This document shows, piece by piece, positions 2,480 to 18,723 of a stretch of DNA of 64,000 nucleotides. Within the stretch, counting starts at the first letter, position 1; every line of letters begins with the position of its first letter. The stretch is from Bacteroidia bacterium (GTDB taxonomy: Bacteria > Bacteroidota > Bacteroidia > Chitinophagales > Chitinophagaceae): the NCBI GenBank assembly GCA_030426665.1, contig JAUHYD010000004.1:105598-169597 (forward strand), given 5' to 3'. Under the pieces are notes generated by a model. It did no database searches. It saw only the letters and a program-made list of their open reading frames with translations, and was not told where the DNA came from. Both the position numbers and the translations under genes were made by a program.

Positions 2480-3484
2480 ATGGAAATATCTTCATCATTT
2501 GACATTCGTGAACTGAATGAGCGAATTCATCAGCAGAGTGCTTTTATTGATTTGTTGACCATGGAGTTGGATAAGGCTGTGGTTGGCCAGAAACATATGG
2601 TTGAACGCTTAATGATTGGAATGTTGGCAAACGGACACGTGCTATTGGAAGGTGTGCCGGGTCTCGCAAAAACACTTGCCATTAAATCTTTGTCATCTGC
2701 TATTCACGCTCGGTTTGCAAGAATACAATTTACACCGGATTTGTTGCCGGCTGACGTACTAGGTACAATGGTTTACAATCCGCAGGAGCATGTATTTGCG
2801 GTGCGTAAAGGACCGATATTTGCCAACTTTATACTTGCGGATGAGATAAACCGTGCTCCGGCAAAAGTGCAAAGTGCACTGTTGGAAGCAATGCAGGAGC
2901 GACAAGTGACCATTGGTGATAGTACTTATAAGCTGGAAGAACCCTTTCTGGTGTTGGCAACACAAAACCCGATTGAGCAGGAAGGTACTTACGAACTGCC
3001 TGAAGCACAGGTGGACAGGTTTATGCTGAAGATTATTATTACTTATCCGAAGAAAGAAGAAGAGCGTCGAATAATTCGTACCAACCTGAACCCGGGTGGC
3101 ATGACTAAGATTAACCCGGTTGTAAAAACAGATCAGATTCTGAAAGCGAGAGAATTGGTCAGAGAGGTGTACATGGACGAAAAGATAGAGCAGTACATTC
3201 TGGACATAGTATTTGCAACACGCTTTCCCGAAGAGTATAAGTTAGGTAAGCTGAAGACCCTTATCAGTTACGGAGGGTCACCACGTGCGAGCATCAACCT
3301 TGCTTTGGCATCAAAAGCATACGCATTTATCAAGCGCAGAGGGTATGTTATACCAGAAGATGTGCGTGCAGTATGTCACGACGTTATGCGCCACCGTATA
3401 GGTCTTACCTACGAAGCGGAAGCAGAAAATGTAACAACGGAGCAAATAATCAACGACATACTGAACGTGGTAGAAGTACCATAG
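2480..3484 (+). CDS. moxR: MoxR family AAA+ ATPase
   Basis: Walker A GVPGLAKT, RIQFTPDLLPAD, Walker B ILADEINRAPAKVQSALLEAMQE and LATQNPIEQEGTY. Confidence 0.95.
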   Translation: MEISSSFDIRELNERIHQQSAFIDLLTMELDKAVVGQKHMVERLMIGMLANGHVLLEGVPGLAKTLAIKSLSSAIHARFARIQFTPDLLPADVLGTMVYNPQEHVFAVRKGPIFANFILADEINRAPAKVQSALLEAMQERQVTIGDSTYKLEEPFLVLATQNPIEQEGTYELPEAQVDRFMLKIIITYPKKEEERRIIRTNLNPGGMTKINPVVKTDQILKARELVREVYMDEKIEQYILDIVFATRFPEEYKLGKLKTLISYGGSPRASINLALASKAYAFIKRRGYVIPEDVRAVCHDVMRHRIGLTYEAEAENVTTEQIINDILNVVEVP

Positions 3485-3509: not shown

Positions 3510-3539
3510 ACGCCACTCATTTCGGGTGGCGTTTTTTTT
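3510..3539 (+). terminator. Intrinsic terminator after moxR
   Basis: Stem CGCCACTC / GGGTGGCG with an ATTTC loop, followed by 8 T. Confidence 0.9.
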
Positions 3540-3753
3540 GTGGGAAATGGATTCGAGAGCTACCTTTTTCATTATAAAAATCAGCAATGTTTTTGCCCTT
3601 GCTTCAAAAAACAGCGCGATAACGGACTTATTCAAAAAGGGGAGGTTGGCGCATGTGTAATTAGTTGAAAAACAACTCGCTGTTAGGGAAGTTATTTTTA
3701 TGATAGATAGCATGTGGTGTATGATAATGCGGAAAGTGCAAGCTCATAAAACC

Positions 3754-3761
3754 TAGGTTTG
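3754..3761 (+). promoter_or_regulatory. Candidate Bacteroidota sigma-A -7 element for the phage-like operon
   Basis: TAGGTTTG matches TAnnTTTG 55 nt upstream of ATG 3816. A variant CATCTTTG lies at 3782-3789. Confidence 0.5.
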
Positions 3762-3815
3762 CCAAAACAAAAAACACGCTTCATCTTTGTGTCACAAAAC
3801 AACCAAATCCCTATC

Positions 3816-4808
3816 ATGATTGAAAAGTTCAAGAAATTAGAGCGACAGTATGTACTGTCGGACAGCTCGGTAAATGAGTATGGCTTTCGTTTGCTGACCT
3901 CCGGTTATCAGATGGATTCTTTTCGCAAAAACCCAATCGGGTATTATATGCACCGCCGCGAAGATGGCATAGCCCTGAAGTGGGAAGACCTGAAAATTGA
4001 AGATGACAAGATAGTAGGTACACCTACCATTAACCTCTCTAATGCCAGGGGCGAACAAACCTGTGCAGAAGCAGAAAACGGCTTTCTGAATGCTGCTTCG
4101 GTAGGTCATATAGTAGTGCTTGAATATAGCACAGAAAAAGAAATGATGCTCCCCGGGCAGACGGGCCCCACTATCACCAAATGGTACAATAAAGAATGTA
4201 GCCTGGTGGATATACCCGGCAATAGCAATGCCCTTACCCATCTATATGATGCGAATGAAAATGAGCTTAATCTGGTTGACCTGAACATCGGAAAACGTTC
4301 ACTACCCGGACTGCAAGAGAACACTCTCATTGACCTTTGCGATGTACTGGGGCTGGCACAAAAAACTACAGAAACCGAAGTTAGAGATGCTGTGAAGCAT
4401 CTGGCTAACAAGGCCAGAAATCTGGAAGCAGCAAACATCACATTAAGCAAAGACAAACAATCGCTCCAAGTACAGCTGGACGAAATAAAGAGTCTGCGCT
4501 GCCGATACGAAGTAACAGCACTGCTAAACCGCGCACTTGAAGACAAAAAGGTGACGGTAGCATTGAAAGAAAAGCTAAACGAAGACTACGCGAATAATCC
4601 GGAAGGGCTAAAGACATTATTAGCTGCAATGCCTGCCTACCAGTCGATAGCGGCACAATTGAAAAATCAAAAACAAGCGGACACGTCAGAAAATTGGGTG
4701 TGGGACGATTATGAAAAAAATGACCCGACCGGCAATAAGCTAAAGTTGTTGCGCGCCAACGACCCTGTTCGTTATCAGGAGCTTTTTGATAAAAAATTCG
4801 CTCAATAG
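3816..4808 (+). CDS. Prohead maturation protease (HK97-type) fused to a scaffold domain
   Basis: VLSDSSVNEYGFRLLTSG, NPIGYYMH (His), GFLNAASVG (Ser) and ECSLVDIPGNSNAL, followed by a coiled coil and ALEDKKVT...LKTLLAAMP as in Mu gpI/Z-type scaffolds. Start set to ATG 3816. Confidence 0.85.
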   Translation: MIEKFKKLERQYVLSDSSVNEYGFRLLTSGYQMDSFRKNPIGYYMHRREDGIALKWEDLKIEDDKIVGTPTINLSNARGEQTCAEAENGFLNAASVGHIVVLEYSTEKEMMLPGQTGPTITKWYNKECSLVDIPGNSNALTHLYDANENELNLVDLNIGKRSLPGLQENTLIDLCDVLGLAQKTTETEVRDAVKHLANKARNLEAANITLSKDKQSLQVQLDEIKSLRCRYEVTALLNRALEDKKVTVALKEKLNEDYANNPEGLKTLLAAMPAYQSIAAQLKNQKQADTSENWVWDDYEKNDPTGNKLKLLRANDPVRYQELFDKKFAQ

Positions 4809-5113
4809 TCGTACGCTCCGGCAAAGACACATCCTGTTGTAAGTAACACAACGGAACTAATGCTACGAATCAACCTCCGGAACACCTTGCTATGCCCATA
4901 GTCAAAGATGGCATACCTAAACTACTGCGCTACCACCACTGGTTTTGTTTTTCAATACACTTTTGAAGCACTCTTGCTGGCTCTTCCTCGATAGCATAAC
5001 CTGTAGCAATCACACCTTTTACCTATAGACATCTTACCAGTACACCCGAAAAGCAGCACCGCTTTTCTATATCTAACAATATCATTCTTTAATCACTAAT
5101 CAATCATACCTAT

Positions 5114-6028
5114 ATGGCAATCCAGAAAGAGATATGGCAAGACCACATCGAAGGCAATCTTTTTAAGAACAACGAGTTTCTGTTAGCATCAACCGATGCC
5201 GGGCAACACGTAATGCAAGGCAAAGTGGTTCATATTCCACAGGCAGGTGCAAAAGCAACCGTGGAAAAAAACCGCTCAACCCTCCCTGCAACAGTGATAC
5301 AGCGTACAGATTCGGACGTAATGTACGTTCTGGACGAATACACCACAGATCCGATTCTCATACCTAATGCAGAGTCGTTTGAGCTGAGCTACAATAAGCG
5401 TGAAAGTGTATTGGGAGAGTATGAGTCGTCGCTCCGGGAAACAATTGCAGACAATTTGTTGATAGAGTGGAGTCCGTCTGGAGTTACCGGTACGACCATC
5501 CGTACCACCGGGGTTGCAACAGCAACACATCTTGCAGATACCGTTGGCAACAGGAAGAAGTTTACGGTTAATGACCTGAAGTATGCTCAGTTGCAAATGA
5601 ATAAACAAAACATTCCGATGGAAGGTCGCTATGCACTGATAAGTGCCGATATGTTTCAGCAACTGACGGACGATATGTCTGCTACTCAGTACCGTGACTT
5701 TAGTGCCGCGTATGATGTAAAAGACGGCATCCTTGGCCGACTGTTCGGCTTCAACATTATGATGCGTGGCAGTGTAGTTACTTATAACAACGACCCTTCC
5801 CCGGTTGTGCACGCTTATGACGATGTAACAGAAGCAACAGACAATGACGGCGTGCTGTGCTGGCAGATGAGTGCTGTAGAACGTGCATTGGGACAAGTTA
5901 CATTCTTTGAACGCATGGGCGACCCTACTTACTATGGCGACATATACAGTGTGGGTGTAAGAATGGGCGGACGTAAACGCAGAAGCGACGCAAAAGGCAT
6001 TGTCGCAATAGTACAAGACGCAGAATAG
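5114..6028 (+). CDS. Major capsid protein
   Basis: 304 aa directly after the protease. GKVVHIPQAGA...NRSTLPAT..QRTD, ELSYNKRESVL, GRYALIS and GRLFGFNIMMR match Bacteroidota phage capsid proteins as recalled. Confidence 0.8.
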   Translation: MAIQKEIWQDHIEGNLFKNNEFLLASTDAGQHVMQGKVVHIPQAGAKATVEKNRSTLPATVIQRTDSDVMYVLDEYTTDPILIPNAESFELSYNKRESVLGEYESSLRETIADNLLIEWSPSGVTGTTIRTTGVATATHLADTVGNRKKFTVNDLKYAQLQMNKQNIPMEGRYALISADMFQQLTDDMSATQYRDFSAAYDVKDGILGRLFGFNIMMRGSVVTYNNDPSPVVHAYDDVTEATDNDGVLCWQMSAVERALGQVTFFERMGDPTYYGDIYSVGVRMGGRKRRSDAKGIVAIVQDAE

Positions 6029-6031
6029 TGC

Positions 6032-6125
6032 CAACAAGGCGGGCACTGGGTCGGGATACCTTTTGTGTTTGTTTCATAAGTAGGTTTTTTATTGATAAGG
6101 AGCCGACAAAATGCCCGCCTTGTTG
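6032..6125 (+). repeat. Long inverted repeat / structured intergenic RNA element
   Basis: CAACAAGGCGGGCA (6032-6045) is the exact reverse complement of TGCCCGCCTTGTTG (6112-6125). Inner pairings GTCGG/CCGAC and CCTT/AAGG extend the stem. Confidence 0.85.
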
Positions 6126-6170
6126 CTAACAATTTTCTTCACCGGCGTATGACGCTCAATATGCAAACTC

Positions 6171-6440
6171 ATGTTCATGGAAATAAAAGTATGGCTTCTC
6201 GTAGGTGTAGCTAGTGTAATGGCTGCGATACTCGGTTTCATAATAAAGGTTGTGACAGATCAGGTATTAAAGCGATTGGACGAAATAGTAACAGAGCTGA
6301 AACAACTTACCCAATCGACTACAGTGCAGGGTCAGCAAATAAAGGGGCTGCAAGAGCAGGATACCATTATTCATCGTCGCTTAAATGAACACTCTGAACG
6401 CATACATACGTTGGAAACAAATGCCATTCACGAAAAATAA
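6171..6440 (+). CDS. Putative holin (one N-terminal TM helix plus a coiled coil, XhlA-like layout)
   Basis: Hydrophobic VWLLVGVASVMAAILGFII followed by a heptad-rich tail, in the lysis cassette upstream of the CHAP enzyme. Confidence 0.55.
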   Translation: MFMEIKVWLLVGVASVMAAILGFIIKVVTDQVLKRLDEIVTELKQLTQSTTVQGQQIKGLQEQDTIIHRRLNEHSERIHTLETNAIHEK

Positions 6441-6472
6441 AACAACTAATTCATCCAGAAATCTCTATCACT

Positions 6473-6904
6473 ATGTTTTGTACAAGGATAAAAAGCAAAC
6501 TAAGAAACGTGCTGCGAACATTTGACAGCTTTGTTGACAACAATGTAGAAACCGCACTTAAAGTAACCACAGTATTGAAACAAATAATTGCGTCGCCCGT
6601 AGCGGACATTGTAACCGCACTAATACCCGGTGAGGCGGACGACTTGCTTAAAAAAAAGTTGCTGATTGCGCTAGAAAAGGTGACGGACGTTTTGACAATT
6701 ACAGACGAGTGCATGAAGCATCATAACGTAAACGATAAGCTCGCCTGCTTTGCAGAACAGATGCGCCATAACTCCCCGGAATTGCAAGACGCTTTATTGC
6801 ATAAAATGGCGAGCCTGTTAACCAGCGAACTAGACGGGAATAGAATGAAACAAAACCTGTACGACCTGTACACACAGGCCAAGTATGCAGCTGCCAAGCA
6901 ATAA
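6473..6904 (+). CDS. Hypothetical helical protein in the lysis cassette
   Basis: 143-aa ORF between the holin and the endolysin, with an amphipathic basic N-terminus. No family recognised. Confidence 0.7.
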   Translation: MFCTRIKSKLRNVLRTFDSFVDNNVETALKVTTVLKQIIASPVADIVTALIPGEADDLLKKKLLIALEKVTDVLTITDECMKHHNVNDKLACFAEQMRHNSPELQDALLHKMASLLTSELDGNRMKQNLYDLYTQAKYAAAKQ

Positions 6905-6945
6905 ATTCAATTTGCAACCTATCGCTAAATCTAAAACACAACAAC

Positions 6946-7512
6946 ATGAACAATACCGGGCATAACTCAATGCCAGATCAAAGAATGCTCGCTTTATACG
7001 CGCTGAAGGCAGCGCAAGGGCAGATAGGACAAACAGAAAGCCCGAAGGGCAGCAACCGGGGCGAAATGATAAATAAGTATTTGCGGTCAGTGGGACTGAA
7101 TCCCGGATACGCCTGGTGTCAAGCGTTTGTGTATTGGTGCTATGAAGAAGCTGCAAAGCAAATCGGTATTCGGAATCCTATGCCCAAAACAGCCGGTGTA
7201 TATGATTGCTGGAATCGTTGCGCAATTGAAGTTAAGGGGCAGGCCACAAGTGTTCTGACAATGTTACGGGAATCTGTGGCCAGACAACCGGAAGTGTTGC
7301 AGCCGGGCGATCAATTCATTTTGACATTTGGCAAGCTTTCCGGACACACCGGTATCATAGAGCGGGTGGCAATAGAAGTAGGAGAAGACCCTGTGCTACA
7401 CACCATTGAAGGAAATAGCAATACAGACGGCAGCAGGGAGGGTTATGCAGTAGTACGACATAAACGAAAGCTAAGCGAAAAGGCATTGCGTGGCTTTATA
7501 CGGTACGCCTAA
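6946..7512 (+). CDS. CHAP-domain peptidoglycan hydrolase (endolysin)
   Basis: PGYAWCQAFVYWC (catalytic Cys), GHTGIIERV (His) and TIEGNSN. Confidence 0.85.
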   Translation: MNNTGHNSMPDQRMLALYALKAAQGQIGQTESPKGSNRGEMINKYLRSVGLNPGYAWCQAFVYWCYEEAAKQIGIRNPMPKTAGVYDCWNRCAIEVKGQATSVLTMLRESVARQPEVLQPGDQFILTFGKLSGHTGIIERVAIEVGEDPVLHTIEGNSNTDGSREGYAVVRHKRKLSEKALRGFIRYA

Positions 7513-7546
7513 CCTCTTGAACATCATCAAACATAAACTCTATAAC

Positions 7547-7783
7547 ATGAATGGAATAAAACAACGCTCCGACAACAGTATGCAGGAAGACAAATTGTAC
7601 TTCAGCAGCGATGGGCTGGCATTTCTAAACGAGACAGACGCAAAAAGGCAAGCGAAATCACTACGAGACAAACGTATCAATGTTATGACCAGGCAGGAAG
7701 CAGATTTACAAATGGAAAAACTGTTAGCTGACATAGGCGATGAAGAGTCCGATATGTTGTCTGGCATACCGACCTTGAAGTAA
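7547..7783 (+). CDS. Small phage protein preceding the sheath gene (positional analogue of Mu gp38)
   Basis: LYFSSDGLAFLNETDAKRQA motif. Located immediately upstream of the sheath. Start set to ATG 7547. Confidence 0.55.
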   Translation: MNGIKQRSDNSMQEDKLYFSSDGLAFLNETDAKRQAKSLRDKRINVMTRQEADLQMEKLLADIGDEESDMLSGIPTLK

Positions 7784-7819
7784 GGGTATCAAAAACAATA
7801 AAATACAAAAACACAAATT

Positions 7820-8998
7820 ATGGGTAGTGTAAACATTACGCTGGCTAATGGTCAGCTTGGGGCAACGCTCCAGACAAATGACGGTATTGCCGGACTGGTA
7901 ATTACCGGGAACACTGAAGGCGACTACACTGTCGGAACACCGATACTGGTAACAAGTATGGCATCCGTAGCAGCAGCAGGCATAACCGACACATTGAACA
8001 GCTTTGCAATTCGACAGTTGCAGGAGTATTACAATCAAGCAGGCGCAGGGGCTCAACTGTATCTGATGCTAGTTCCTGCCACAATGACCATAGCAGATAT
8101 GGCGGATAACGCCAACCCGGATGGTGCAAAAAAGCTACTGGACTATGCTGATGGAAAGGTAAAAGTATTGGGGTTGCTCAGCGATGATATCGCTGTCGCT
8201 GCTGCCACAGAACCGATAGTTATAACAAATGGTATAAACGAAGACGTTTACACTGCAGAAGCAAATATGGTAGTAATGGCAGCAGCCTACTTTGCTGCAC
8301 ACAAGCCTTTCAGAGCCATTATCGGTGGCACAAGTTTCTCAGGAGTTGCGGCGGAATTAAATGATTACTCTACAGGCACAACCAACAACCGCACAGCCAT
8401 ATTAATCGGTGACACAAAAAGTGGTGTTGGCGCGTGTGTAGGTCTTGCATTAGGCGTTGTTGCATCCATACCTGTGCAGAGAAAAATTAGCAGGGTTAGA
8501 ACCGGTCCACTTACTAACACAGCAGCTTTCCTCGGCACAGAATCGGTGGAAGCTTTGGCAGAGTCTTTACCGGTTATTGCACAAAAGAGCTTCATCACAT
8601 TTATTACCTATGCCAACACAAGTGGCTACTTCTTTTCCGGTGACCCAATGTGCACTGCCACAACAGACGACTACAGTATGTTGGCGAGAGGTCGAATAAT
8701 AGACAAAGCCCACGTGCTGGCCTATACAACCTTTGTACAGGTAATAGATGATGAGATTCCTGTAAATGCCGATGGAACGTTAGATGCAGGCTTTTGTAAA
8801 TGGTTGAGTCAGCAAATAGTAAATCTGGTTAATAATACCATGACTTCCAATAAAGAGATAAGTAGCGTGAATTGCTTCATCAACCCGGAACAAAATATTC
8901 TCAGCACCAACGAGCTGAATGTAGTACTTAGTATTGTACCTGTCGGATATGCAACTAATATAGAAATCAGCCTCGGGTTCAGCAATCCGGCCAACTAA
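7820..8998 (+). CDS. Contractile tail sheath protein (DUF2586-like)
   Basis: 392 aa: VNITLANGQLG, GLALGVVASIPVQRKISRVRTGPL, FITFITYANTSGYFFSGD and C-terminal VPVGYATNIEISLGF. Confidence 0.85.
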   Translation: MGSVNITLANGQLGATLQTNDGIAGLVITGNTEGDYTVGTPILVTSMASVAAAGITDTLNSFAIRQLQEYYNQAGAGAQLYLMLVPATMTIADMADNANPDGAKKLLDYADGKVKVLGLLSDDIAVAAATEPIVITNGINEDVYTAEANMVVMAAAYFAAHKPFRAIIGGTSFSGVAAELNDYSTGTTNNRTAILIGDTKSGVGACVGLALGVVASIPVQRKISRVRTGPLTNTAAFLGTESVEALAESLPVIAQKSFITFITYANTSGYFFSGDPMCTATTDDYSMLARGRIIDKAHVLAYTTFVQVIDDEIPVNADGTLDAGFCKWLSQQIVNLVNNTMTSNKEISSVNCFINPEQNILSTNELNVVLSIVPVGYATNIEISLGFSNPAN

Positions 8999-9051
8999 AC
9001 AATAGTTGTACAAAGGCTCCAATTAATTCTCAAAACAAAATACAATAAACA

Positions 9052-9483
9052 ATGCCAACAATACCATTTTTCGATAGCAAAGACTGCGAATGGGCGGATA
9101 TGACGGTAATGGTTGCCGGATCTGTTCTAACGAAGATTACAGGTGTAAAGTACAAAGCATCAAAAGAAAAGAAGCTGCTACATGCAGCCGGAAACGAGCC
9201 GATAAGTGTGCAGGGAGGAAAGCGCAGTTATGACGGAACAATAACAGTCCTGAAAGGTGCAATCGACGATCTCAATAGAGCTGCTATTGCGGCTGGAGGA
9301 GACGACATATTAGACCTGCAGTTTGACGTAGTAGTTACCTACAAAGCAAAAGGCACACGTGCGCTACAAACCGACACGCTAATAGGGGTAGAAGTTAAGG
9401 ACTTCGAGAAAGGCTGGACACAGGGAGCGACGCAAATGGAAATTCCACTGCCCATAATTTTTCTGAAGTTGATTACAGAGTAA
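9052..9483 (+). CDS. Tail tube protein
   Basis: 143 aa after the sheath: EWADMTVMVAG, HAAGNEPISVQGGKRSYDGTITV and KGWTQGATQMEIPLP. Confidence 0.85.
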   Translation: MPTIPFFDSKDCEWADMTVMVAGSVLTKITGVKYKASKEKKLLHAAGNEPISVQGGKRSYDGTITVLKGAIDDLNRAAIAAGGDDILDLQFDVVVTYKAKGTRALQTDTLIGVEVKDFEKGWTQGATQMEIPLPIIFLKLITE

Positions 9484-9543
9484 AATCAGATTTCCCCCGT
9501 TACCCAAAATCATATTTATCAAAAAATCAAAAACATAAAGCTA

Positions 9544-9867
9544 ATGTCAAAACAAGTAAACCTGCTTATAGGTCAGGTTCCGGAATCACAAGTAAATGAA
9601 TGGAAGTCGAAGTATAGTCTTGGTATTTATGCTGTAGAAGTGAACGGGCATATAGGATATTTTAAGAACCCCGGAAGAAATGAAATGAACTGCGCTATGA
9701 GCAAGGCTGATAAAGACAAGGCACTTGCTATTTACGAAGAGTTATCCAGCCTGACATTCATTGGCGGAAGCGAAGAAGTGCTGAAGAATGACCAAATGTT
9801 TATAGGCGTTTGTCAGGAATTGAAAGTGAAACTGGATGGCAAAAAAGCGCGACTGGTAAACTTATAG
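9544..9867 (+). CDS. Tail assembly chaperone (gpG-like, short form)
   Basis: 107 aa between the tube and the tape measure: WKSKY, GYFKNPGRNE. Ends in a slippery sequence. Confidence 0.8.
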   Translation: MSKQVNLLIGQVPESQVNEWKSKYSLGIYAVEVNGHIGYFKNPGRNEMNCAMSKADKDKALAIYEELSSLTFIGGSEEVLKNDQMFIGVCQELKVKLDGKKARLVNL

Positions 9868-9901
9868 CGGAGTCATGCGGAGGACCGGCTCATGATTCCG
9901 T
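9855..9901 (+). promoter_or_regulatory. Candidate -1 programmed ribosomal frameshift signal
   Basis: In-phase heptamer G_GTA_AAC (9855-9861), a 5-nt spacer, then an 11-bp stem GCGGAGTCATG / CATGATTCCGT (9867-9901, two G-U pairs). Confidence 0.7.
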
Positions 9902-10046
9902 AGGTTACTTCGAGACAATACTGGAATATTTTCTACCCGGTCTCAATCATCGACAGCTCAGCGACGAAGCATTTGCACAAAAAATAGCACACTTGCTATA
10001 CATACGAAAACATTTGTCAGTAAACGGTGCTGACAATAGTGTGTAG
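9861..10046 (+). CDS. gpT-like extension of the tail chaperone, reached by -1 frameshift
   Basis: The -1 frame stays open across the chaperone stop (LIAESCGG...ILEYFLPG...LSDEAFAQKIAHLLYIRK) and has no ATG of its own before 9875. Confidence 0.65.
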   Translation, partial: LIAESCGGPAHDSVGYFETILEYFLPGLNHRQLSDEAFAQKIAHLLYIRKHLSVNGADNSV

Positions 10047-10068
10047 CACTTGCTCCAAACCCTAAACC

Positions 10069-11409
10069 ATGAACACAAGACGTTATAACCGATTCTCAGA
10101 TACTGGCTATGGAATCAATCTGCTATCCATCACTCTGGAAATTACACAACTAAACGACACCCTTGCAATCACAAATACTGCAATCGGAAAGCTAAGTGTT
10201 ACTAGCGGTTTACTAAGGAAAGCACTGCTACGTACGGCAACACCATTTACGTTGCACCTTTCGCCCCAGGTTTTGCATGACACAGATTACAATAATGAAG
10301 CACAGGATGGGATCGAGCGAAACCAAAGAGTAGGTAGCACAGCAGATAAAATCGGTAAACTTTCAGATATATCCGGAAGTCTGACAAAGTTCTCAGAGTT
10401 GATTGATGCAAGCAGCATCGGCGCAGGGGGTTTACAAAAGGCAGCCAAATCACTTTCCGGCGCTTCCGCCGGTGTATCAGGAGCGGCACAGCTATTGAGC
10501 GGAGCTGCTACCGGCATGGGGCTGGCGGAGGGCATGGCCGCCGCTGCAGAGTTTGCTACAGGTGTTACGACGCTTGCGGAAGTGTTTTCCGGACCTCCCG
10601 GTTGGGCAATACTTCTGGGTACTATTTTAACCGGGGTTACTGCTGCTTACCTGGATAGTGAAAGCCGGAAGCGGCAAGAAAAGAGAGAGAAAAAGGATAA
10701 GGATGAAGGAGCGCTTCAGAGCTTTCGGATGTCGTCAGAGGATGCTAACAAGTATCATTCACGCTTAGCCCAGTTGGCAAAGGGGGTAAATGTAAATACT
10801 GCAGGAATTGGCAGCGACTGGAATATGTCGTACAGCAGTCGCGATGAAGTTGTTCAAAGTTTTACTAAGCACCCCTGGAGTCCGCACTTTTCACCTGTCA
10901 TTCCGAAAGTGGACAACACCGATGTTAAACACGGCTTCGTACCTGGTTTCGTAAAGGAGAATAGTGCACTTGAGCAAGATACTCTGGCTTACGTTCAGCA
11001 ACGACCTCAGATATATTCTCACTTGTTAGCCAGAGGTTTGTCTGATGGACTTGCCGGTTTCGAAAAACTCTATCTCAAGGAAATAGCACTTGCAAAAGTG
11101 TATGACGCAAGCAACAATACCAACAAGTCAGGTATGGTAGAGTTGGTTGGCAAGGAAGTTTCTGAGGTATTACTACGGAACGCAAACCAAGGAAAAAAAG
11201 AACCGATACCAATCAGCTATGGGGGCGGAAACATTGAAACGTACAGGGGACGAGGACGTACCGCAGTTGTCAATATCAATTTGAACAAGCCAATGATTGA
11301 ACACTTTTCTATTCACACCAGCAGCACAGAAAAAAGCATCGATGAAATCAGGCACAAAGTAGAAGAAGTGCTGCTGGAGATACTAAACAGCGCAAACACA
11401 ATTAATTAA
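10069..11409 (+). CDS. Short tape-measure-like protein
   Basis: Position after the chaperone, an A/G/S-rich helical region with a hydrophobic stretch (GPPGWAILLGTILTGVTAAYL), and the C-terminal ININLNKPMIEHFSI...VEEVLLEILNSA. Confidence 0.7.
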   Translation: MNTRRYNRFSDTGYGINLLSITLEITQLNDTLAITNTAIGKLSVTSGLLRKALLRTATPFTLHLSPQVLHDTDYNNEAQDGIERNQRVGSTADKIGKLSDISGSLTKFSELIDASSIGAGGLQKAAKSLSGASAGVSGAAQLLSGAATGMGLAEGMAAAAEFATGVTTLAEVFSGPPGWAILLGTILTGVTAAYLDSESRKRQEKREKKDKDEGALQSFRMSSEDANKYHSRLAQLAKGVNVNTAGIGSDWNMSYSSRDEVVQSFTKHPWSPHFSPVIPKVDNTDVKHGFVPGFVKENSALEQDTLAYVQQRPQIYSHLLARGLSDGLAGFEKLYLKEIALAKVYDASNNTNKSGMVELVGKEVSEVLLRNANQGKKEPIPISYGGGNIETYRGRGRTAVVNINLNKPMIEHFSIHTSSTEKSIDEIRHKVEEVLLEILNSANTIN

Positions 11410-11411
11410 CG

Positions 11412-12074
11412 ATGGGAGAAATATCACTCAGTTTATCGACACTATTTGAGCAAACTTTTGGTTACAAAACCACAGCCTTTGAGCCCGAGTTCGGGGACGA
11501 AAATTCCAGTAAGCAGATTCAGCGAAAAGAGCAGGGCGCGGGAGGGTCGCCATACTACACAAATGATGCATTCGGTGTAGAATATTATATGCCTGTTACC
11601 CTTGTATATCCGGATACAACAACCTCGGGGTCTCCGCCGCCCGGTAATACACCAGCGGCTTCTGACAAGCAGTTTGTTACTCGTAAAAAATGGAGTCTCC
11701 CCTACCCGATAGTGTCGCTAAAGAGCAAGAAAACAATTGTTGAAACTGCAATGACCGAGCGGGGAGGTACACTTAAAGAGTTGATAAATATTAAGGACTA
11801 CGAAATTCTCGTGCGGGGATTTATTGTAGGGACAACAGAAGACTACCCGGAACGTGATGTAACTACCCTGCGTACTATATATGAGCAGAATACGGCGATA
11901 TCAATGCAGTGCCCGTTAACAGACATCTTTTTGTTACGACCAGATAGGAGTGGTAGTGATCAGGTGGTAATAAGTGAATTAATAATAAAAGAAAACGTCG
12001 CGGTGAAAAACATATGCGCATACGAAATGAAACTAGTAAGCGATGAACCATTTAATCTGATAAGCATAGAATAA
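11412..12074 (+). CDS. Tube-initiator / DUF6046-like protein
   Basis: LFEQTFGY, IVETAMTERGGTLKELINIKDYEILVRG and LVSDEPF, located directly after the tape measure. Confidence 0.7.
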   Translation: MGEISLSLSTLFEQTFGYKTTAFEPEFGDENSSKQIQRKEQGAGGSPYYTNDAFGVEYYMPVTLVYPDTTTSGSPPPGNTPAASDKQFVTRKKWSLPYPIVSLKSKKTIVETAMTERGGTLKELINIKDYEILVRGFIVGTTEDYPERDVTTLRTIYEQNTAISMQCPLTDIFLLRPDRSGSDQVVISELIIKENVAVKNICAYEMKLVSDEPFNLISIE

Positions 12075-13108
12075 TGTTTGTATTGAATAGCGATGTAACA
12101 ATCGGCAATTTCCGGTTTAGCGGCGTGAATGAAGTTGTAATAAAACGGAGCATTCATAGCATAGTTGAAACAGCAACCATAAAGATACCATCGATTGCAA
12201 CGATCATCACAAAAGGAAAGAAGGTCAGGGAGCGAATTACGACTGCTGACCAATTCAAAGAAGGAGATAAGGTCACAATAAAACTGGGATACAATGGTGA
12301 CTTAAAAACGGAGTTTCAAGGTTTTGTCAATAAACGAAAGATGGGTTTGCCGTTTGAAATAGAATGTGAAGGTGCGAGTTGGCTCTTAAGAAAGAACAAG
12401 CCGGAAATGAAAGTGCAACCCAAGACAATAAAGGACCTTATCGCAACTGCCGTAAGTAACGTTACCGGTGGTCATAAGATTGACATTGAATGTGACGTTG
12501 ACATTGACTTGTCGAACATAAGCCTTAATAGTCCTACGGGTTTCGAGATTGTCAACTATATATCCAAGTGTACAGACAACAATGTGATCTGCTTTTTTAT
12601 TGGCCACAACAAGCTATGGTGCGGCCTGTTGTATTCAAACTTAGCTAGCGGAAAAAAATTACCTGATACGGAAACGGTTACCTATAAGGTTCGGTACAAC
12701 ACATTACCGTTAGATAGACTAGTACCCCACAGCACAGAGGGGAAGACAGGATCCGTCGAGTACAGTCGCCGATTGACAAACGGCAGCAAAATAACCCACG
12801 TATCGACAGGGGTATCTGAAAATGAAGGGAGACATGTTATGCTGCTCAATCATATAAAAGATGTAACAGGGTTAAAGCTGCTGGCAGATGAATGGGTTTG
12901 CAAAAATGGCTACAAAGGGTATGAAGGTAGCCTTACAGGTTTTTTACAACCTTATGCCCGACCGGGGCACTGTGCAGTTGTCAACAATGCGCACACACCA
13001 GGGCTAAACGGCACCTACTTTATCGAAAGCACAGAAGTGACTTTTGGAACGGAAGGCGCGCGTAGAAAAGTTGAACTTGGTCCTAAAGTAGGCGAAAAAA
13101 ATCAGTAA
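12074..13108 (+). CDS. Baseplate hub (gpD / Mu gp44-like)
   Basis: 344 aa: SIVETATIKIP, GDKVTIKLGYNG...EFQGFV, GYEGSLTGFLQPYARPG and GTYFIESTEVTFG.EGARRKVELG. TAATG overlap with the upstream gene. Confidence 0.8.
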   Translation: MFVLNSDVTIGNFRFSGVNEVVIKRSIHSIVETATIKIPSIATIITKGKKVRERITTADQFKEGDKVTIKLGYNGDLKTEFQGFVNKRKMGLPFEIECEGASWLLRKNKPEMKVQPKTIKDLIATAVSNVTGGHKIDIECDVDIDLSNISLNSPTGFEIVNYISKCTDNNVICFFIGHNKLWCGLLYSNLASGKKLPDTETVTYKVRYNTLPLDRLVPHSTEGKTGSVEYSRRLTNGSKITHVSTGVSENEGRHVMLLNHIKDVTGLKLLADEWVCKNGYKGYEGSLTGFLQPYARPGHCAVVNNAHTPGLNGTYFIESTEVTFGTEGARRKVELGPKVGEKNQ

Positions 13109-13112
13109 TAAC

Positions 13113-13661
13113 ATGAGTAAGAACATAGCAAGAATAAGAGATGGGTTAACGTCGATTACTCGAAGGCAATATGAGATAATTGGTGGAACAGTTGTTGAAG
13201 GCAGTCTCGATGAGGGAGCAAATACAGTGAGCGTGCAACCGGATTATGATAGTCCGCCGATACACGATGTAATGCTATTGTCGGTATCGGACAGCAATAG
13301 GGGAATGACACTGACGCCTGAAGGAGGTAGCAAGGTTGTCATTTGTACAATCGATGGACCAGGTTTATGGACGATCATAAAAATGAGCGAACTGAAGAGT
13401 GTATCTGTGAAAATAGGGTCATCTACCCTTGATATTAATGACACATCTATCCGGTTGAGTGCAAACAATAGTGTGTTGGATATAGGAGACGTAATGAAAA
13501 TGAAAACGTCTGGTGAAAGTTTGTACTCCTTGCTCAATGATTTAATAGAGGGAATCACAACATTGACCGTTGGAATACCTTCCGGATCAAGCACCGTGCC
13601 TGTAAACGTCGCAACGTTCAAGGCTTTGAAAGTAAGACTAAGCAATCTTTTAAGTTCTTAA
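13113..13661 (+). CDS. Baseplate central spike (gpV / Mu gp45-like)
   Basis: OB-fold-like N-terminus (TVSVQP...DVMLLS...LTPEGGSKVVI) followed by beta-repeat strands. Position after the hub. Confidence 0.7.
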   Translation: MSKNIARIRDGLTSITRRQYEIIGGTVVEGSLDEGANTVSVQPDYDSPPIHDVMLLSVSDSNRGMTLTPEGGSKVVICTIDGPGLWTIIKMSELKSVSVKIGSSTLDINDTSIRLSANNSVLDIGDVMKMKTSGESLYSLLNDLIEGITTLTVGIPSGSSTVPVNVATFKALKVRLSNLLSS

Positions 13662-13679
13662 AAAAAAACTCGATACCCT

Positions 13680-13979
13680 ATGGCGAAACTAATGATAGAC
13701 ATACAACTTGGCGAGGATGAAGACCTGTCAATTCTTGCAGGTGACTTTCAGGTGGCAGAATCTACAGCGCAACATCAGCAACAATTGCTCCTGAATACAA
13801 AAGGAGATTTCAAAGAAAGTCCCACGGTTTGTGTGGGCGTATTTACCTATCTAAATGACGAACGCTTTCAGGGGTTAATGCGGGCAATCAATGTAGAGTT
13901 CAGCAGAGATGGAATGGAGGTGCACGAGGTCTCCCTATCTAAGCAAGGCGATATTGTCAGTGATGCAGTTTATAAATAG
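13680..13979 (+). CDS. Baseplate protein (gp25 / Mu gp46-like)
   Basis: 99 aa: GDFQVAESTAQHQQQLLLNTKGDFKESPTVCVGV...EFSRDGM. Confidence 0.7.
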   Translation: MAKLMIDIQLGEDEDLSILAGDFQVAESTAQHQQQLLLNTKGDFKESPTVCVGVFTYLNDERFQGLMRAINVEFSRDGMEVHEVSLSKQGDIVSDAVYK

Positions 13980-14008
13980 ACACCTTAACAACACACAAAA
14001 CAGGTGAA

Positions 14009-14962
14009 ATGGAAAAATCAGTACAAGTAAAACCCAACCAAAGTCTTCTGGACATTATTCTTACAGAATATGGTTCTCTTGAAGCAGGGATGAAAGTCGC
14101 AGCGGCAAATAATACCAACATAAGTAGTGTCCCTGAAGTAGGAGGGCATTTAATAATGCCAGAAGTGAAGCAGGAAATTACCGATTTCGCAAACGTTGCC
14201 TATTTGCGTCAGAATGATGTTGTAATTGGCACCTTGTCGTTACCTGGCCTGGGATATGAAATTGTCTTGAAGCCCGGTTTGGAGGTTGTTCCGAATACAT
14301 CCGGCAATCCACATACCATAGGTTATTACTCCTTTGATGTTATCGGGTCAGCTGATTTTGTTCATTTATTTCCTTTGTCCGGTGCCTATCTATCCGATAA
14401 TCAATTACAATATGAATCAGAGGAACGGTACATTTTTGGTGAGGATGCCGAGACAGCAGCACAGCTTTCTGTAACTCCAATGAGTGCACTTTCGATTCCA
14501 TACATTTTGCCCTGGTCAGTTGGGTTTGGGTACATGATTGTCTGGAGCGACCTTACACAGCCCATTGTTACCACAACATTCAAAGACTCAGAGGGAAATG
14601 AAGCATATGCCGCACCTATGACAGTTCTGGACAATATTTCTCAGGTAGTAATAGAGCAGTTTATGGGGGACATAGACGTAGAGATTGTAGCCGCGACAAA
14701 CTCAAGTATAATATTAAGACTTACCCGCAGCCACCCTCCTGTTTCGCTTACTAATTTTCGGAATGTCTCCATGGAATGGCTGGGCGAAGCCGTTTCTTCT
14801 GATCCGGACCCGTCGGATCCGGAAAACCCTGACAAATGCGTTGTCTCATTAGGTGCCGGTACACACACTATTGGTCTGAAAACGCGCTACGTCATAGAAG
14901 GTTCCAGCTCACCGGCTGCTTATCCCGCATCTGCATTTACTATGGTTATAAAAGTACATTAA
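14009..14962 (+). CDS. LysM-like baseplate protein (gpX-like) with a long C-terminal extension
   Basis: N-terminal VKPNQSLLDIILTEYGSLEAGMKVAAANN...GGHLIMP, then about 240 aa of acidic beta-rich sequence. Confidence 0.6.
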   Translation: MEKSVQVKPNQSLLDIILTEYGSLEAGMKVAAANNTNISSVPEVGGHLIMPEVKQEITDFANVAYLRQNDVVIGTLSLPGLGYEIVLKPGLEVVPNTSGNPHTIGYYSFDVIGSADFVHLFPLSGAYLSDNQLQYESEERYIFGEDAETAAQLSVTPMSALSIPYILPWSVGFGYMIVWSDLTQPIVTTTFKDSEGNEAYAAPMTVLDNISQVVIEQFMGDIDVEIVAATNSSIILRLTRSHPPVSLTNFRNVSMEWLGEAVSSDPDPSDPENPDKCVVSLGAGTHTIGLKTRYVIEGSSSPAAYPASAFTMVIKVH

Positions 14963-14975
14963 TTAAAAACAGAAA

Positions 14976-15797
14976 ATGGCTAGAACAATCGCTGAAATTC
15001 AGCAACAAATAATCGACACAAAAAACGCGGATACGACCCTTAGTGCTTATGTTTGGAGTGACAGCAAAGTGGCGATATGGCGACTATGGACTTATGTAGT
15101 AGCAGCATGTATCTGGACGCTCGAAAACCTATTCGACTACCACAAAGTTGAGGTGGAAACCATTATATCAAATCAAAAGCCACACACACTTAAATGGTAT
15201 GTTTACATGGCAAAGTTGTTTCAGTACGGCGTAACACTACCCGATGATACAGACACATATCCAACCCCATCAACTGACCCGGAAGTTGTCATTGTTCAAT
15301 ATGCCGCAGCCGTCGAGTTGTCAAATCTTGTGCGGATTAAAGTCGCCAAGAGCCCGTCAGGAACACTTGAAAGCCTGTCGGAAGAAGAGTTAGAAGCGTT
15401 TTCCGGTTATATGAATCGCATCAAAGATGCTGGTGTACGCTTACAATTGACGAGCGGAAATCCCGACATACTCAAACTTGAAGTATCTGTATTCTATGAC
15501 CCGCTTGTATTGAGCAGTACCGGAGAGCGACTGGACGGGGCTTCAACAACGCCTGTATTAGATGCTGTTAATGTTTTCCTTTCTGATCTACCGTTTAACG
15601 GTGTTTTTGTATTAAATCATTTGATAGCTGCACTGCAGAATGTAGAGGGGGTGAAAATCGGTTATGTAGTAAGCGCACAGGCTAATTACGGTACCACTCC
15701 GTTTGTTCCAATCTCTGTCAAGTACACACCGGATGCTGGTTATATGATACTCGATGAAACGTTCTTCAATGCTAATGTTACATACACAGCTGCGTAA
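14976..15797 (+). CDS. Baseplate wedge protein (gpJ-like)
   Basis: MARTIAEIQQQII, SKVAIWRLWTYVVA, PHTLKWY and YMNRIKDAGV...YTPDAGY, as in Bacteroidota myophage wedge proteins. Confidence 0.75.
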   Translation: MARTIAEIQQQIIDTKNADTTLSAYVWSDSKVAIWRLWTYVVAACIWTLENLFDYHKVEVETIISNQKPHTLKWYVYMAKLFQYGVTLPDDTDTYPTPSTDPEVVIVQYAAAVELSNLVRIKVAKSPSGTLESLSEEELEAFSGYMNRIKDAGVRLQLTSGNPDILKLEVSVFYDPLVLSSTGERLDGASTTPVLDAVNVFLSDLPFNGVFVLNHLIAALQNVEGVKIGYVVSAQANYGTTPFVPISVKYTPDAGYMILDETFFNANVTYTAA

Positions 15798-15835
15798 CGA
15801 CAATCTACTATTACAAAAATCTCGACTACACTACC

Positions 15836-16339
15836 ATGAGCTTCTTTAATATCAACTATGAAATTTTGAGTGTACAGTTATTACCGGTGCGTTTGCGCAA
15901 AAACAAAATGAAAGCGTGGATTTCATGCCTGACAATACCTATCCGTAGATTGTACAGTCTATTTATGAATAACAGGGGTAATAATCTCTACTACCTATCA
16001 AATAATAGTCAGGTATGCAATCTCGAATCTGTACTAAACGATGTCTTTGACCCTGCATATAGAGGTATATATATTGAAGACGGATTGTACAACGACCCAC
16101 TATTTACATTCCTTTTTCCGGAACTGAAACCACAGTGGCTGGCTACTCAGGCAGAATCGGGAATGACCGACTTTGACTCACCCGCCGTCCTGTTTACAAA
16201 CTCCGAGACATCCCTGCTAACAAGTGCTTTTATTGTTCGGGTGCCGGCATCTCTTTCATTTGAACCCGATAGGATGAAGGCTTTAATTAACAAGTATCGG
16301 ATACCGGGAAAAAGTGTCTACGAAATACAGACATACTAA
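15836..16339 (+). CDS. Baseplate wedge protein (gpI-like)
   Basis: LLPVRLRK...QVCNLESVLNDVFD...IYIED...FIVRVP...LINKYRIPGK.Y. Confidence 0.7.
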   Translation: MSFFNINYEILSVQLLPVRLRKNKMKAWISCLTIPIRRLYSLFMNNRGNNLYYLSNNSQVCNLESVLNDVFDPAYRGIYIEDGLYNDPLFTFLFPELKPQWLATQAESGMTDFDSPAVLFTNSETSLLTSAFIVRVPASLSFEPDRMKALINKYRIPGKSVYEIQTY

Positions 16340-16381
16340 CGCTCAATTAACTTAACGGACTTCACAATAAATATAGACAAG

Positions 16382-17221
16382 ATGAAATCAATTGACTTTA
16401 CTAAACCGGGAGGCTTCCCGCTTACTCAGGACCAACTTGGTTACCTGCAAGAGGCTTATACTGAATCAATCGGAGCATTGGCAGCCATAGGGGGTAGCGG
16501 TGCTACTCCTTACATTATCAGCGGAATTGTTATCAGCAACCCCTCAATTGGAACGTACAGTATTACCGATGGTTGGTTTTTCTACAACGGTGAAATGGTG
16601 CGGTGTCTTTCCGGAAGTGTTGTGGGCGCAAGCGGTGCTTTGGCTCCGTTTATTGTAATCAATCCGGAAAGTTCATCCTTGGTATTCAATAATGGCAGCA
16701 CACCCGATGTGATATTTGACAAGAGTGCCACAATAGTAGTGTTACCCTCCTCAACGGCAACTGATGCTACTCATTTTCCGCTTAGCTCACTGCAAAAGTT
16801 CGGTAGTAGTCTTGGCAACAACAATAGGGAAGAAGTATGGAGTTTTTTGGAGGTAGATACTCCTGCCGTCGATGGCGGTGTGGTTGGAAATATTTATTAC
16901 AAAAAGGATTACATATCTAATACGTTACACTTGAGAGGGCTGCTTACAGCTAACAACGCCCAAAACTTTGCAGGGTCTCCCGGTACGATGTTGTACCTTA
17001 TGGGAACGCTTCCCTCCGCCTACATTCCTTCAAATAGCGTGTACTTTTCTACTTATTATTTTGTAGGGACGTCCGTCAAAGATGACGTAGGGGTCAGTTG
17101 GATAAAACAAGTAAATTGTGTTGTGAATGTAGCTGGGCAAGTATTGATAAATTGGATAAAGCCAGAAGTCGGCGTAGGAGCGTATGGCGTCAATTTTAAT
17201 GTTGTAATCCCATTGGGTTAA
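16382..17221 (+). CDS. Short tail fibre / receptor-binding protein
   Basis: Anchor MKSIDFTKPGGFPLTQDQLGYLQEAY, GWFFYNGEMV and a C-terminal beta domain with GTLPSAYIP. Last gene of the module. Confidence 0.7.
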   Translation: MKSIDFTKPGGFPLTQDQLGYLQEAYTESIGALAAIGGSGATPYIISGIVISNPSIGTYSITDGWFFYNGEMVRCLSGSVVGASGALAPFIVINPESSSLVFNNGSTPDVIFDKSATIVVLPSSTATDATHFPLSSLQKFGSSLGNNNREEVWSFLEVDTPAVDGGVVGNIYYKKDYISNTLHLRGLLTANNAQNFAGSPGTMLYLMGTLPSAYIPSNSVYFSTYYFVGTSVKDDVGVSWIKQVNCVVNVAGQVLINWIKPEVGVGAYGVNFNVVIPLG

Positions 17222-17224
17222 ACA

Positions 17225-17770
17225 CTAGGTTTTTACGGTGTCTTGTCTTGAAAACAACAACAAATAAACGACGATAAATAACATTGAAGTTACCGTTGAT
17301 GCAACCGTCTTCAGGAGCAGGTTCGAAACATTACTGATATTCCAAAGTTCAACGGAGAAAAACAACAAGTGATGTACCAGAATAAGGAATCCACTATAAA
17401 CAAGAAATGGCATCCAGCCCATTGTTCTGACAGACGGCTGCATCCCGGTGTATTCGGATAGGTTTCTGGGCAAAAGGGCATTGAGCACGTTGATCCGCAA
17501 GTAAGCAATCAGAACCATTGCACAGGCATGCATGCCGGCTGTATTACTAAAAGCATCTATGGTAACCCCAAGAACAAACCCCACCGTAAGCAGCAGCCAT
17601 ATGGGTGTTTCGAACGGCAACAATAACAAAAACAATGGGTATATGTATGGGGTAAATACTGGAAAACCGTACGGTTCACTCCACCACCGAAGGTTTATCC
17701 TGTTCAGTATAAGTACCTGAAGGAGCACAATAATAAAAAACCGCAATGTATTTTTTAGATATACATTCAT
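17225..17770 (-). CDS. mreD: Rod shape-determining protein MreD
   Basis: Multi-TM protein downstream of mreC: YPLFLLLLPF, GVTIDAFSNTAGMHA. Confidence 0.9.
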   Translation of the reverse strand: MNVYLKNTLRFFIIVLLQVLILNRINLRWWSEPYGFPVFTPYIYPLFLLLLPFETPIWLLLTVGFVLGVTIDAFSNTAGMHACAMVLIAYLRINVLNALLPRNLSEYTGMQPSVRTMGWMPFLVYSGFLILVHHLLFFSVELWNISNVSNLLLKTVASTVTSMLFIVVYLLLFSRQDTVKT

Positions 17771-17773
17771 TGA

Positions 17774-18631: not shown

Positions 18632-18723
18632 TAATCTGTAATTTTTGTTTGCTCCATCCCGGTCAATGTCCGGAGTTGTGGCATCAGTCTTTAATAAGTA
18701 GCTTTTGACTGACGCATAGGAAG

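Follow-up and report, generated by a model that had tools for sequence, protein, structure and literature searches.

Head Protease and Capsid Genes of a Chitinophagaceae Chromosome as the Probable Head-Building Part of a Domesticated, Multi-Locus Phage-Derived Particle System

The Head Genes and Their Setting

The subject of the present analysis is a pair of phage-type head genes at 3816-6028 of a 64-kb window, the whole stretch of DNA that was analyzed, which has a GC content of approximately 43% and reads as a Bacteroidota chromosome. The pair comprises a prohead protease with a C-terminal scaffold domain of the Mu gpI/Z-like type (3816-4808, forward strand, 330 amino acids) and an HK97-fold major capsid protein (5114-6028, forward strand, 304 amino acids). 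Both genes belong to a 13.5-kb block of co-oriented genes that fills the interval between moxR and mreDCB of the host, and every open reading frame (ORF) of the element (3700-17221) encodes a head, lysis or tail protein or a small protein with no assigned role. As argued below, the pair probably represents the head-building part of a domesticated particle system in which the portal and terminase are encoded at a second locus.

The ORF of the protease is open from a TTG at 3759 (3759-4808), and the ATG at 3816, from which residues are numbered here, gives 330 amino acids. This ATG is the start in all relatives and in an independent gene call of 330 amino acids from a Logan contig, and because these agree it is taken as the real start. 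The protein matches phrog_11321 over its full length (E = 5e-57) and also phrog_328, “head maturation protease”, while the Pfam family Mu-like_Pro (PF10123) is matched at E = 1e-6 in the C-terminal, scaffold part of the family. It can be observed that His46 (YYMH) and Ser95 (AASVG) are invariant in 52 of 52 homologues, a set that takes in distant phage prohead proteases and the enzyme of a Porphyromonas phage. The two residues are spaced by approximately 49 positions, presumably in parallel with His65 and Ser114 of HK97 gp4. The C-terminal half (residues ~185-330) was predicted to be helical by a single-sequence AlphaFold2 (AF2) model of low confidence (predicted local distance difference test, pLDDT, 34), which fits a scaffold domain. 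A profile search of the PDB with the protease alignment gave coiled-coil noise alone, and a single-sequence PDB search, made with no alignment, returned nothing. Judged by family matches and relatives, the product of 3816-4808 is an HK97/Mu-type prohead serine protease with a fused scaffold, for which a catalytic role is predicted. An earlier annotation made from the letters of the window, here termed the sequence-only reading, had pointed out the His and Ser motifs, the long scaffold tail and a full-length capsid gene of 304 amino acids, all of which were confirmed.

The capsid protein was assigned to Phage_capsid_2 (PF19821), the Pfam scan otherwise returning P22_CoatProtein alone, and to phrog_267, “major head protein” (E = 2e-33). 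Its profile matches the solved capsid of cyanophage A4 (9jwb, E = 2e-10). The AF2 model is weak, with a mean pLDDT of 59 and confident solely in the core (residues 100-260); the best 50 listed matches of this model in a Foldseek search of the PDB are almost all capsid chains of tailed phages or prophages. No encapsulin appeared among those 50 matches, and no encapsulin family was matched in the Pfam scan, and an encapsulin was rejected on these family and fold-neighbor tests. Capsid homologues number more than 1,600. The best 120 are 71-88% identical to the window protein and lie on Chitinophagaceae contigs of up to 1 Mb; nearly all have 302-307 amino acids, with outliers at 286-323. The gap between protease and capsid is 306 bp in the window (4809-5113) and ranges from 128 bp to approximately 1.4 kb elsewhere; in two related loci (L019 and L032) an additional ORF is inserted between the two genes.

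Conservation and Vertical Descent of the Element

A scan of species-representative genomes gave 47 related loci in Flavipsychrobacter, Taibaiella, Nemorincola and other Chitinophagaceae. The order protease, capsid, small genes and endolysin, sheath, tube and baseplate is kept in all 47, and in every relative the protease, capsid, lysis and tail genes form one co-oriented block with no intervening host genes. Relatives with the tail genes therefore keep the head genes, a point that the sequence-only reading had proposed to check. The capsid is free of stops in 45 of 45 full-length matches and the protease is intact in 46 of 47 loci, the exception being L008 (8892-9866) with an in-frame stop; frequent loss or pseudogenization of the head genes, which the same reading had named as an outcome that would speak against its proposal, is not what is observed. 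Intact ORFs are retained in at least 45 species over several genera. Pairwise ratios of nonsynonymous to synonymous substitution rates (dN/dS) are 0.06 for the tube, approximately 0.07 for the capsid, 0.13 for the sheath and 0.17 for the protease, and 0.16 and 0.15 for the large terminase (terL) and portal of the second locus, all of these being rough values because dS is near saturation.

The genomic position is shared between species as well. The pair radA-pheS lies directly to the left of the protease in 8 species, and thyA-folA-clpX in 5. At these syntenic sites, the identity of the capsid tracks that of pheS, radA and clpX. For example, between L002 and L013 the identities are 90% for pheS, 92% for radA and 92% for the capsid, and between L002 and L016 they are 83% for pheS and 86% for the capsid. 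The baseplate and fiber genes diverge far faster, at 31-60% identity where the capsid has 85-92%. No excision junctions were found in metagenome contigs, which are colinear. The element is thus inherited vertically and is under purifying selection across the host clade.

The Packaging Module at a Second Locus

A tblastn search of the 64-kb window detected no portal, terminase, adaptor, neck or MuF gene. In the relatives, packaging functions are found in a module that comprises a small terminase (terS, of the DUF1804/helix-turn-helix type), TerL (phrog_38, E = 9e-70), an adaptor resembling Mu gp36, a Mu-type portal (Pfam PF06074, E = 1e-59) and a protein of 186 amino acids whose match in the nearest phage is the “tail completion” gene. 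In approximately 12 loci this module is divergent and starts just upstream of the protease, and even in these adjacent cases host genes, either a DEAD-box helicase or a large secreted protein, lie between terS and the protease. In most genomes the two are split, with the packaging module 15-138 kb from the protease and capsid or on another contig. On single contigs, the distance is approximately 15 kb in Flavipsychrobacter stenotrophus RB1R16, 21-25 kb in CALQJX02, CAZBAP01, JAUIBA01, CAIRES01 and CAIKOJ01, 37 kb in JAZKFF01 and 138 kb in JBGAIF01.

The packaging module was found in 57 clade assemblies among the first 62 of 80 loci of the terminase scan, and an independent scan found the terminase locus in 36 of 45 capsid-bearing assemblies. 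It is mostly stand-alone, with neither capsid nor tail genes nearby, and because such packaging loci lack capsid and tail genes of their own, the two loci are regarded as complementary halves of one particle gene set. Moreover, they diverge together: the distances of capsid and TerL are correlated with a Mantel r of 0.67 (p = 0.0005), and those of capsid and portal with a rho of 0.80.

For the genome of the window itself, protein searches were made with the portal and terminase of its closest relative, Taibaiella, as queries. A portal of 368 amino acids (P0131, PF06074) that is approximately 78-79% identical to the query was recovered, as was a terminase of 505 amino acids (P0248) with 66% identity. 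Each lies on one contig, 360,369 bp long, and this is also the length of the longest contig with the capsid of the window (P0001). Furthermore, the nearest relatives of P0131 and P0248 come from JAIOYR01 and CAIJXT01, genomes that also hold two of the closest relatives of the capsid (84-85%). A matching portal and terminase are thus very probably present in the genome of the window, a link that is strong but indirect. The packaging locus is absent from approximately 7 kb of upstream and 47 kb of downstream sequence next to the element, and the 3.3 kb beyond the upstream edge of the window holds host genes. A comparison of the metagenome contigs with the packaging locus of Taibaiella at 80% likeness gave low-complexity matches only, and was uninformative because the DNA is too diverged (the portal protein being 79% identical). 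The statement of the sequence-only reading that the head genes are retained without a portal consequently stands for the window and fails for the lineage, and very probably for this genome too.

With respect to the connection of head and tail, no MuF or neck homologue (of the HK97 gp10/Mu G-like type) was detected in the domesticated clade, including the compact copy of Nemorincola; neck homologues in the clade turned up solely inside other, complete phage-like packaging arms. The absence of the neck is provisional because the scan rests on a single peptide pattern. Both proteins are present in compact phage-like relatives (L092, L098, L104, L116, L121-L125 and phage BK068093), and distant relatives in Dysgonomonas, Limibacterium, Flavobacterium and other Chitinophagales display the compact layout with MuF and neck.

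Several additional features of the packaging loci were observed. An antisense gene for a multi-pass membrane protein lies between adaptor and portal in 39 loci (for example, L070:11799-12161, reverse strand), and a gene for a lipoprotein with an acidic and lysine-rich tail lies between terminase and adaptor in 36 (L040:1299-1874, reverse strand). Genes resembling those of outer membrane proteins are located between the portal and tail-completion genes (L053:12584-13225, forward strand). Beside the tail-completion gene, on the opposite strand, an ORF of approximately 102 amino acids occurs in both split and compact phage-like copies (L052:16160-16468, reverse strand); its 26 members have no Pfam match and a dN/dS of approximately 0.26, and the system may be regulated by its product. 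The metagenome-assembled genome (MAG) CAIRYK01 contains a compact phage-like copy (L042/L098), with MuF, neck and a fiber gene fused to a tail-completion domain, together with a split domesticated copy (L020 and L061). Either compact and split copies coexist in this organism or the bin is mixed.

The Shared Cassette of Operator and Putative Promoter

Upstream of the protease, the window contains an operator-like site of three phased TAT(G/C)ATA boxes at 3699-3705, 3720-3726 and 3742-3748, the third being the degenerate GCTCATA. It is the only such site in the window. It is followed on the forward strand by a putative promoter of the Bacteroidota type, a single match in the window, with a -33 element TTTG at 3758-3761 and a -7 element TTCATCTTTGTG at 3780-3791, and a conserved leader, CAAAACAACCAAATCCCTATC, separates it from the ATG of the protease. 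A -33/-7 promoter consensus is known for Bacteroidetes, and it is on this consensus that the suggested promoter role of 3758-3791 rests. The same cassette is observed upstream of the protease in the window and in approximately 40 relatives, in the order A-tract, three boxes, -33 TTG, -7 TTCACCTTTGTG and leader. The three boxes form two palindromes with variable inner arms, and the -33/-7 elements and the leader are conserved in both position and sequence across relatives.

An identical box architecture is present upstream of terS in the stand-alone packaging loci. In 18 same-genome pairs of loci, the inner arms were more alike within than between genomes, with a median local score of 36 versus 20 (Mann-Whitney p = 6e-7). 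In JBGAIF01 both palindromic units are identical at the two loci with their order swapped, as expected if one ancestral bidirectional control region had been copied to both halves. These patterns suggest that a common regulator with genome-specific specificity acts at both loci, its binding being a prediction from the sites.

Some minor observations concern the same region. The motif TTATCCACA, presumably a match to the DnaA-box consensus, lies a few bases upstream of the A-tract of the operator before terS in most packaging loci (for example, L053, L058, L065, L068 and L091) and before the protease in L031, L035, L037, L039, L040 and L043; it is absent from 3600-3700 of the window. The motif hints at a link to replication status. 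In addition, near-identical extra copies of the cassette, 2-5 per genome, occur in JAIXSZ01 (L192, L196, L198, L213 and L221), CAMDNC01 (L189, L215 and L223), CAZRPA01 (L209, L211 and L226) and JBIKKS01 (L216 and L229). Each of these is followed by an ORF for a terS/DUF1804-like helix-turn-helix protein (MTLTDQKKQALELYVNQSFTQQQVADA...) whose low-complexity C-terminus is variable (172-526 amino acids). Such proteins might hijack the packaging machinery in the manner of a satellite, might be regulators or might form a repeat family. In CAISOH01 (L219 and L222) another ORF stands behind the cassette, similar by eye to a homing-endonuclease-associated repeat (...RFGTW..A..KAGLK...), so that in some genomes the regulon may include additional members.

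Phage Origin and Comparison with Known Systems

By capsid, the nearest deposited phages are transposable phages of Porphyromonas gingivalis, for example phage012a (BK068093, 48% identity), followed by the Flavobacterium myophages lotta8 and pippi8 (36%). The Porphyromonas phages belong to a candidate family with the Bacteroides Hankyphage p00 (PMC10367356). The similarity to phage012a extends to TerL (41%) and portal (33%) in addition to the capsid, and to the divergent layout of the genes. In the phage, tail completion, neck, portal/MuF, adaptor, TerL and TerS lie on one strand, while protease, capsid, endolysin and holin, and then the tail, lie on the other. It differs in that the phages of this group are complete, at 33-35 kb, with a transposase, MuB, Gam, a repressor, a MuF-fused portal and a neck, genes that the element lacks, and in that the tail of these phages is non-contractile whereas that of the window element is contractile. 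No transposase, MuB, repressor or phage ends were found in the window element or in the compact copy of Nemorincola. The phages vB_FspM_lotta8-1 and pippi8-1 (Winoviridae, Pippivirus) share with the system the DUF2586 sheath, the tube, the baseplate hub, the Mu gp36 adaptor and the PF06074 portal. They are complete phages of approximately 34.7 kb that possess replication genes, MuF, a protein similar to Mu G and a protease of the ClpP type, and their modules are all colinear on one strand. Taken together, these similarities suggest descent of the system from a Bacteroidota transposable phage of the Mu/Hankyphage type.

Among domesticated elements, the gene transfer agents (GTAs) of Rhodobacter capsulatus (RcGTA) and Faecalibacterium (FpGTA) likewise retain structural and lysis genes only, within the host chromosome (PMC5026251, PMC12946183), and are similar in their vertical inheritance, in purifying selection across a clade and in an implied common regulation. 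The two operons of FpGTA are approximately 125 kb apart. Essential parts of such agents are spread over distant loci, so that a single headful cannot take up all of the genes, and the dispersed loci of the system described here may have the same consequence. RcGTA resembles siphoviruses and FpGTA podoviruses, in contrast to the contractile tail and independent Mu/Hankyphage-type origin of the system described here. The latter is split between portal/terminase and capsid, whereas the portal, terminase and capsid of RcGTA stay in its main cluster. For the system described here, both the packaging of host DNA and its transfer are predictions. PBSX of Bacillus subtilis is comparable in possessing a head, a contractile tail and an XhlA-type lysis accessory, in being chromosomal and in no longer propagating. 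It occupies one contiguous stretch that includes portal and terminase genes of its own, belongs to another phylum and has no sequence relation to the window element. PBSX packages host DNA in fragments of 13.4 kb (PMC12946183). Encapsulins are similar in so far as an HK97-fold shell protein is encoded in a bacterial chromosome, and they differ in that the capsid gene of the window is embedded in a tail and lysis block, is co-conserved with a portal and terminase and has phage capsids as fold neighbors.

Assembly Model and Weighing of Alternatives

The results are best explained if 3816-6028 serves to build the heads of a GTA-like or PBSX-like particle system, derived from a phage, domesticated, inherited vertically and made up of at least two loci, and to this explanation we assign a probability of approximately 0.6. 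Locus 1 (approximately 3700-17221) would supply the protease/scaffold, the capsid, the lysis cassette and the contractile tail in full, and locus 2, outside the window, would supply terS, terL, the Mu gp36-like adaptor, the Mu-type portal and the tail-completion protein, with one regulator acting on the cassette at both. With the portal supplied in trans, the capsid would then assemble on it and around the scaffold domain of the protease; the scaffold would be removed by the His46/Ser95 protease, and the terminase would fill the head by headful packaging. Since no transposase, phage ends or repressor are left, the packaged DNA would be host DNA. With its mobility genes lost and its loci dispersed, the system would presumably be unable to transmit itself, and these two properties together define a GTA-like or PBSX-like element. 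Heads would finally join tails, and the XhlA-like protein and the CHAP endolysin would release the particles. A portal supplied in trans had been one of the options of the sequence-only reading, and it gains support from the packaging locus in the same genomes, the genome-specific operator and purifying selection. The retained packaging genes favor a particle that carries DNA, and the fast-evolving fibers fit transfer and killing alike.

Certain observations weigh against this explanation. The portal P0131 and the terminase P0248 are tied to the window by equal contig size and phylogenetic fit alone. The operator of the window is more degenerate than most, both in its third box and in its -7 element (CATCTTTG). 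The joining of head and tail is not assured, because neck and MuF homologues were undetected in the domesticated clade, and there is a small chance that DNA-filled heads and tails might be released unjoined if these two are indeed missing. Finally, many or most of the genomes are MAGs, so that the co-occurrence of the loci could be affected by binning, and the saturation of dS mentioned above blurs the measure of selection.

Of the alternatives, the most substantial is that two-locus particles of head and tail are maintained for bacteriocin-like killing of related strains, the DNA-filled head being a by-product, as PBSX kills sensitive cells without delivering its packaged DNA. We consider this unlikely, though clearly less so than the remaining alternatives. 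The tail is complete and contractile, the cluster includes an XhlA-like protein and an endolysin, the baseplate and fiber genes evolve fast as in receptor arms races, and PBSX is a known case of a defective prophage with packaging of host DNA (PMC12946183). Nevertheless, purifying selection on terminase, portal and adaptor is comparable to that on the sheath, which is harder to explain if the head is dispensable, and true tailocins lose their heads. An R-type tailocin was itself ruled out, as capsid, protease, portal, terminase and adaptor are all kept under purifying selection. An inert, decaying prophage remnant with no current function would be in line with the absence of transposition, replication and lysogeny genes, the host-like genes interspersed in the packaging module, the in-frame stop of the L008 protease and the poorly conserved tape measure. 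Set against this are ORFs intact in at least 45 species with dN/dS of 0.06-0.2, a capsid as conserved as pheS, radA and clpX and a regulatory cassette kept at both loci, which make such decay improbable.

The probability is lower still for a temperate or transposable prophage that remains active through other modules outside the window. Close compact phage-like copies do exist in the clade (L042/L098 with MuF, neck and fiber; L135; L138), but host genes lie directly on both flanks of the element, the site is syntenic across species, the loci are up to 138 kb apart, no excision joints were seen, and neither transposase nor integrase was found in the window element or in the compact copy of Nemorincola. 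An active prophage was accordingly rejected as a candidate on the basis of missing mobility genes, a syntenic site and missing excision joints. Least probable of all is the suggestion with which the sequence-only reading had begun, namely that protease and capsid make a portal-less HK97 shell, independent of the tail, as an empty or cargo-loaded nanocompartment, a decoy or an immunity device. HK97-fold shells can assemble without portals, the window holds no portal, and heads might not join tails if neck and MuF are truly missing from the domesticated clade. On the other side, portal, terminases, adaptor and tail-completion protein are co-conserved and co-diverge with the capsid locus and share its operator, the contig size of 360,369 bp is common to the capsid and to a portal and terminase that match the system, and the kin of the capsid are tailed phages, with no encapsulin in Pfam or among the best 50 listed fold matches. 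Furthermore, the head genes form one block with lysis and tail genes.

Returning to the domesticated two-locus system, a more specific version can be put forward tentatively, as somewhat less probable than even: it would be the first GTA-like system of Bacteroidota, an independently domesticated Mu/Hankyphage-type phage turned into a multi-locus regulon that packages host DNA, kept up for the life of the Flavipsychrobacter-Taibaiella-Nemorincola lineage and controlled by way of a palindromic operator specific to each genome, in many cases with a site resembling a DnaA box next to it. The multi-copy terS-like genes of some genomes may exploit this operator in a satellite-like way. A search of the full-text literature found no published description of such an element, or of a GTA, in Bacteroidota or Chitinophagaceae, or under the DUF names. 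Described GTAs are few and mostly from Alphaproteobacteria, and a survey of 2026 lists GTAs and GTA-like elements only in Rhodobacterales, Bartonella, Caulobacter, Desulfovibrio, Brachyspira, Methanococcus, PBSX and Faecalibacterium (PMC12946183). If the proposal is true, an independently domesticated, contractile-tailed system would represent a new origin among the few known GTA/PBSX-like elements, as well as an example of a two-divergent-operon phage pulled apart into a host regulon with its shared operator kept. Two cultured carriers are available, F. stenotrophus RB1R16 and Nemorincola caseinilytica JCM 32105. The case also illustrates that head genes without a portal in a window of limited length are no evidence for a portal-less shell.

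Flanks, Lysis Genes and Tail Genes of the Element

To the left of the element, a gene for a MoxR-type AAA ATPase (AAA_3) is located at 2480-3484, and a terminator-like hairpin with a T-run lies 3' of it at approximately 3512-3539. Genes for DUF58/vWA partners usually follow moxR; in the window they do not, and the hairpin and then the phage-derived block come next. None of the related loci has moxR at its left flank, and the junction of moxR with the element is therefore specific to the lineage of the window. No integrase, transposase, repressor or replication gene was found in the block 3700-17221, and neither Rfam matches nor a tRNA were found in the window. The family matches of the block include no cargo-type enzyme, and the sole gene upstream of the capsid there is the phage-type protease/scaffold.

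Downstream of the capsid, all genes of the element are on the forward strand. The lysis region begins with a small protein (6171-6440) that has an N-terminal membrane helix and a coiled coil and is weakly XhlA-like (weak Pfam XhlA and phrog_1009 matches). It is kept in most related loci at 55-80% identity, the nearest phage has an endolysin and a holin at the matching position, and it is probably a lysis accessory or holin-like protein. A conserved protein of approximately 131-143 amino acids with no assigned role follows (6473-6904); it is present in most related loci, and no family match above threshold was obtained for it. The CHAP-domain endolysin is encoded at 6946-7512 (Pfam CHAP, E = 3e-7; phrog_9589 endolysin, E = 1e-10). 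Directly upstream of the sheath gene lies a small conserved protein (7547-7783) with homologues at the same position in relatives, and a common motif was seen by eye in distant phage-like copies too.

The contractile tail sheath (DUF2586) at 7820-8998 is supported by Pfam PF10758 (E = 5e-49) and phrog_907, tail sheath, and the tail tube at 9052-9483, after the sheath gene, by phrog_4579, tail protein, and by its low dN/dS. Between the tube and tape measure genes, a probable pair of tail assembly chaperones (9544-10046) is indicated by ORF layout and phrog_19076. Here, 9810-10046 overlaps 9544-9867 in the -1 frame, the layout of the programmed frameshift of tail assembly chaperones, and a frameshift is putative on this basis. 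The tape measure protein at 10069-11409, short (446 amino acids), fast evolving and poorly conserved among relatives, was assigned from its position and a weak phrog_1293 match. Two baseplate hub proteins follow at 11412-12074 (DUF6046) and 12074-13108 (phrog_4930). The remaining genes, at 13113-13661, 13680-13979, 14009-14962, 14976-15797, 15836-16339 and 16382-17221, are syntenic in relatives and are assigned to baseplate, spike and fiber; 14976-15797 matches phrog_38413, and the roles of the others are suggested by position. The element ends on the right at 17221, convergent with mreD of the host operon mreD-mreC-mreB (17225-19755).

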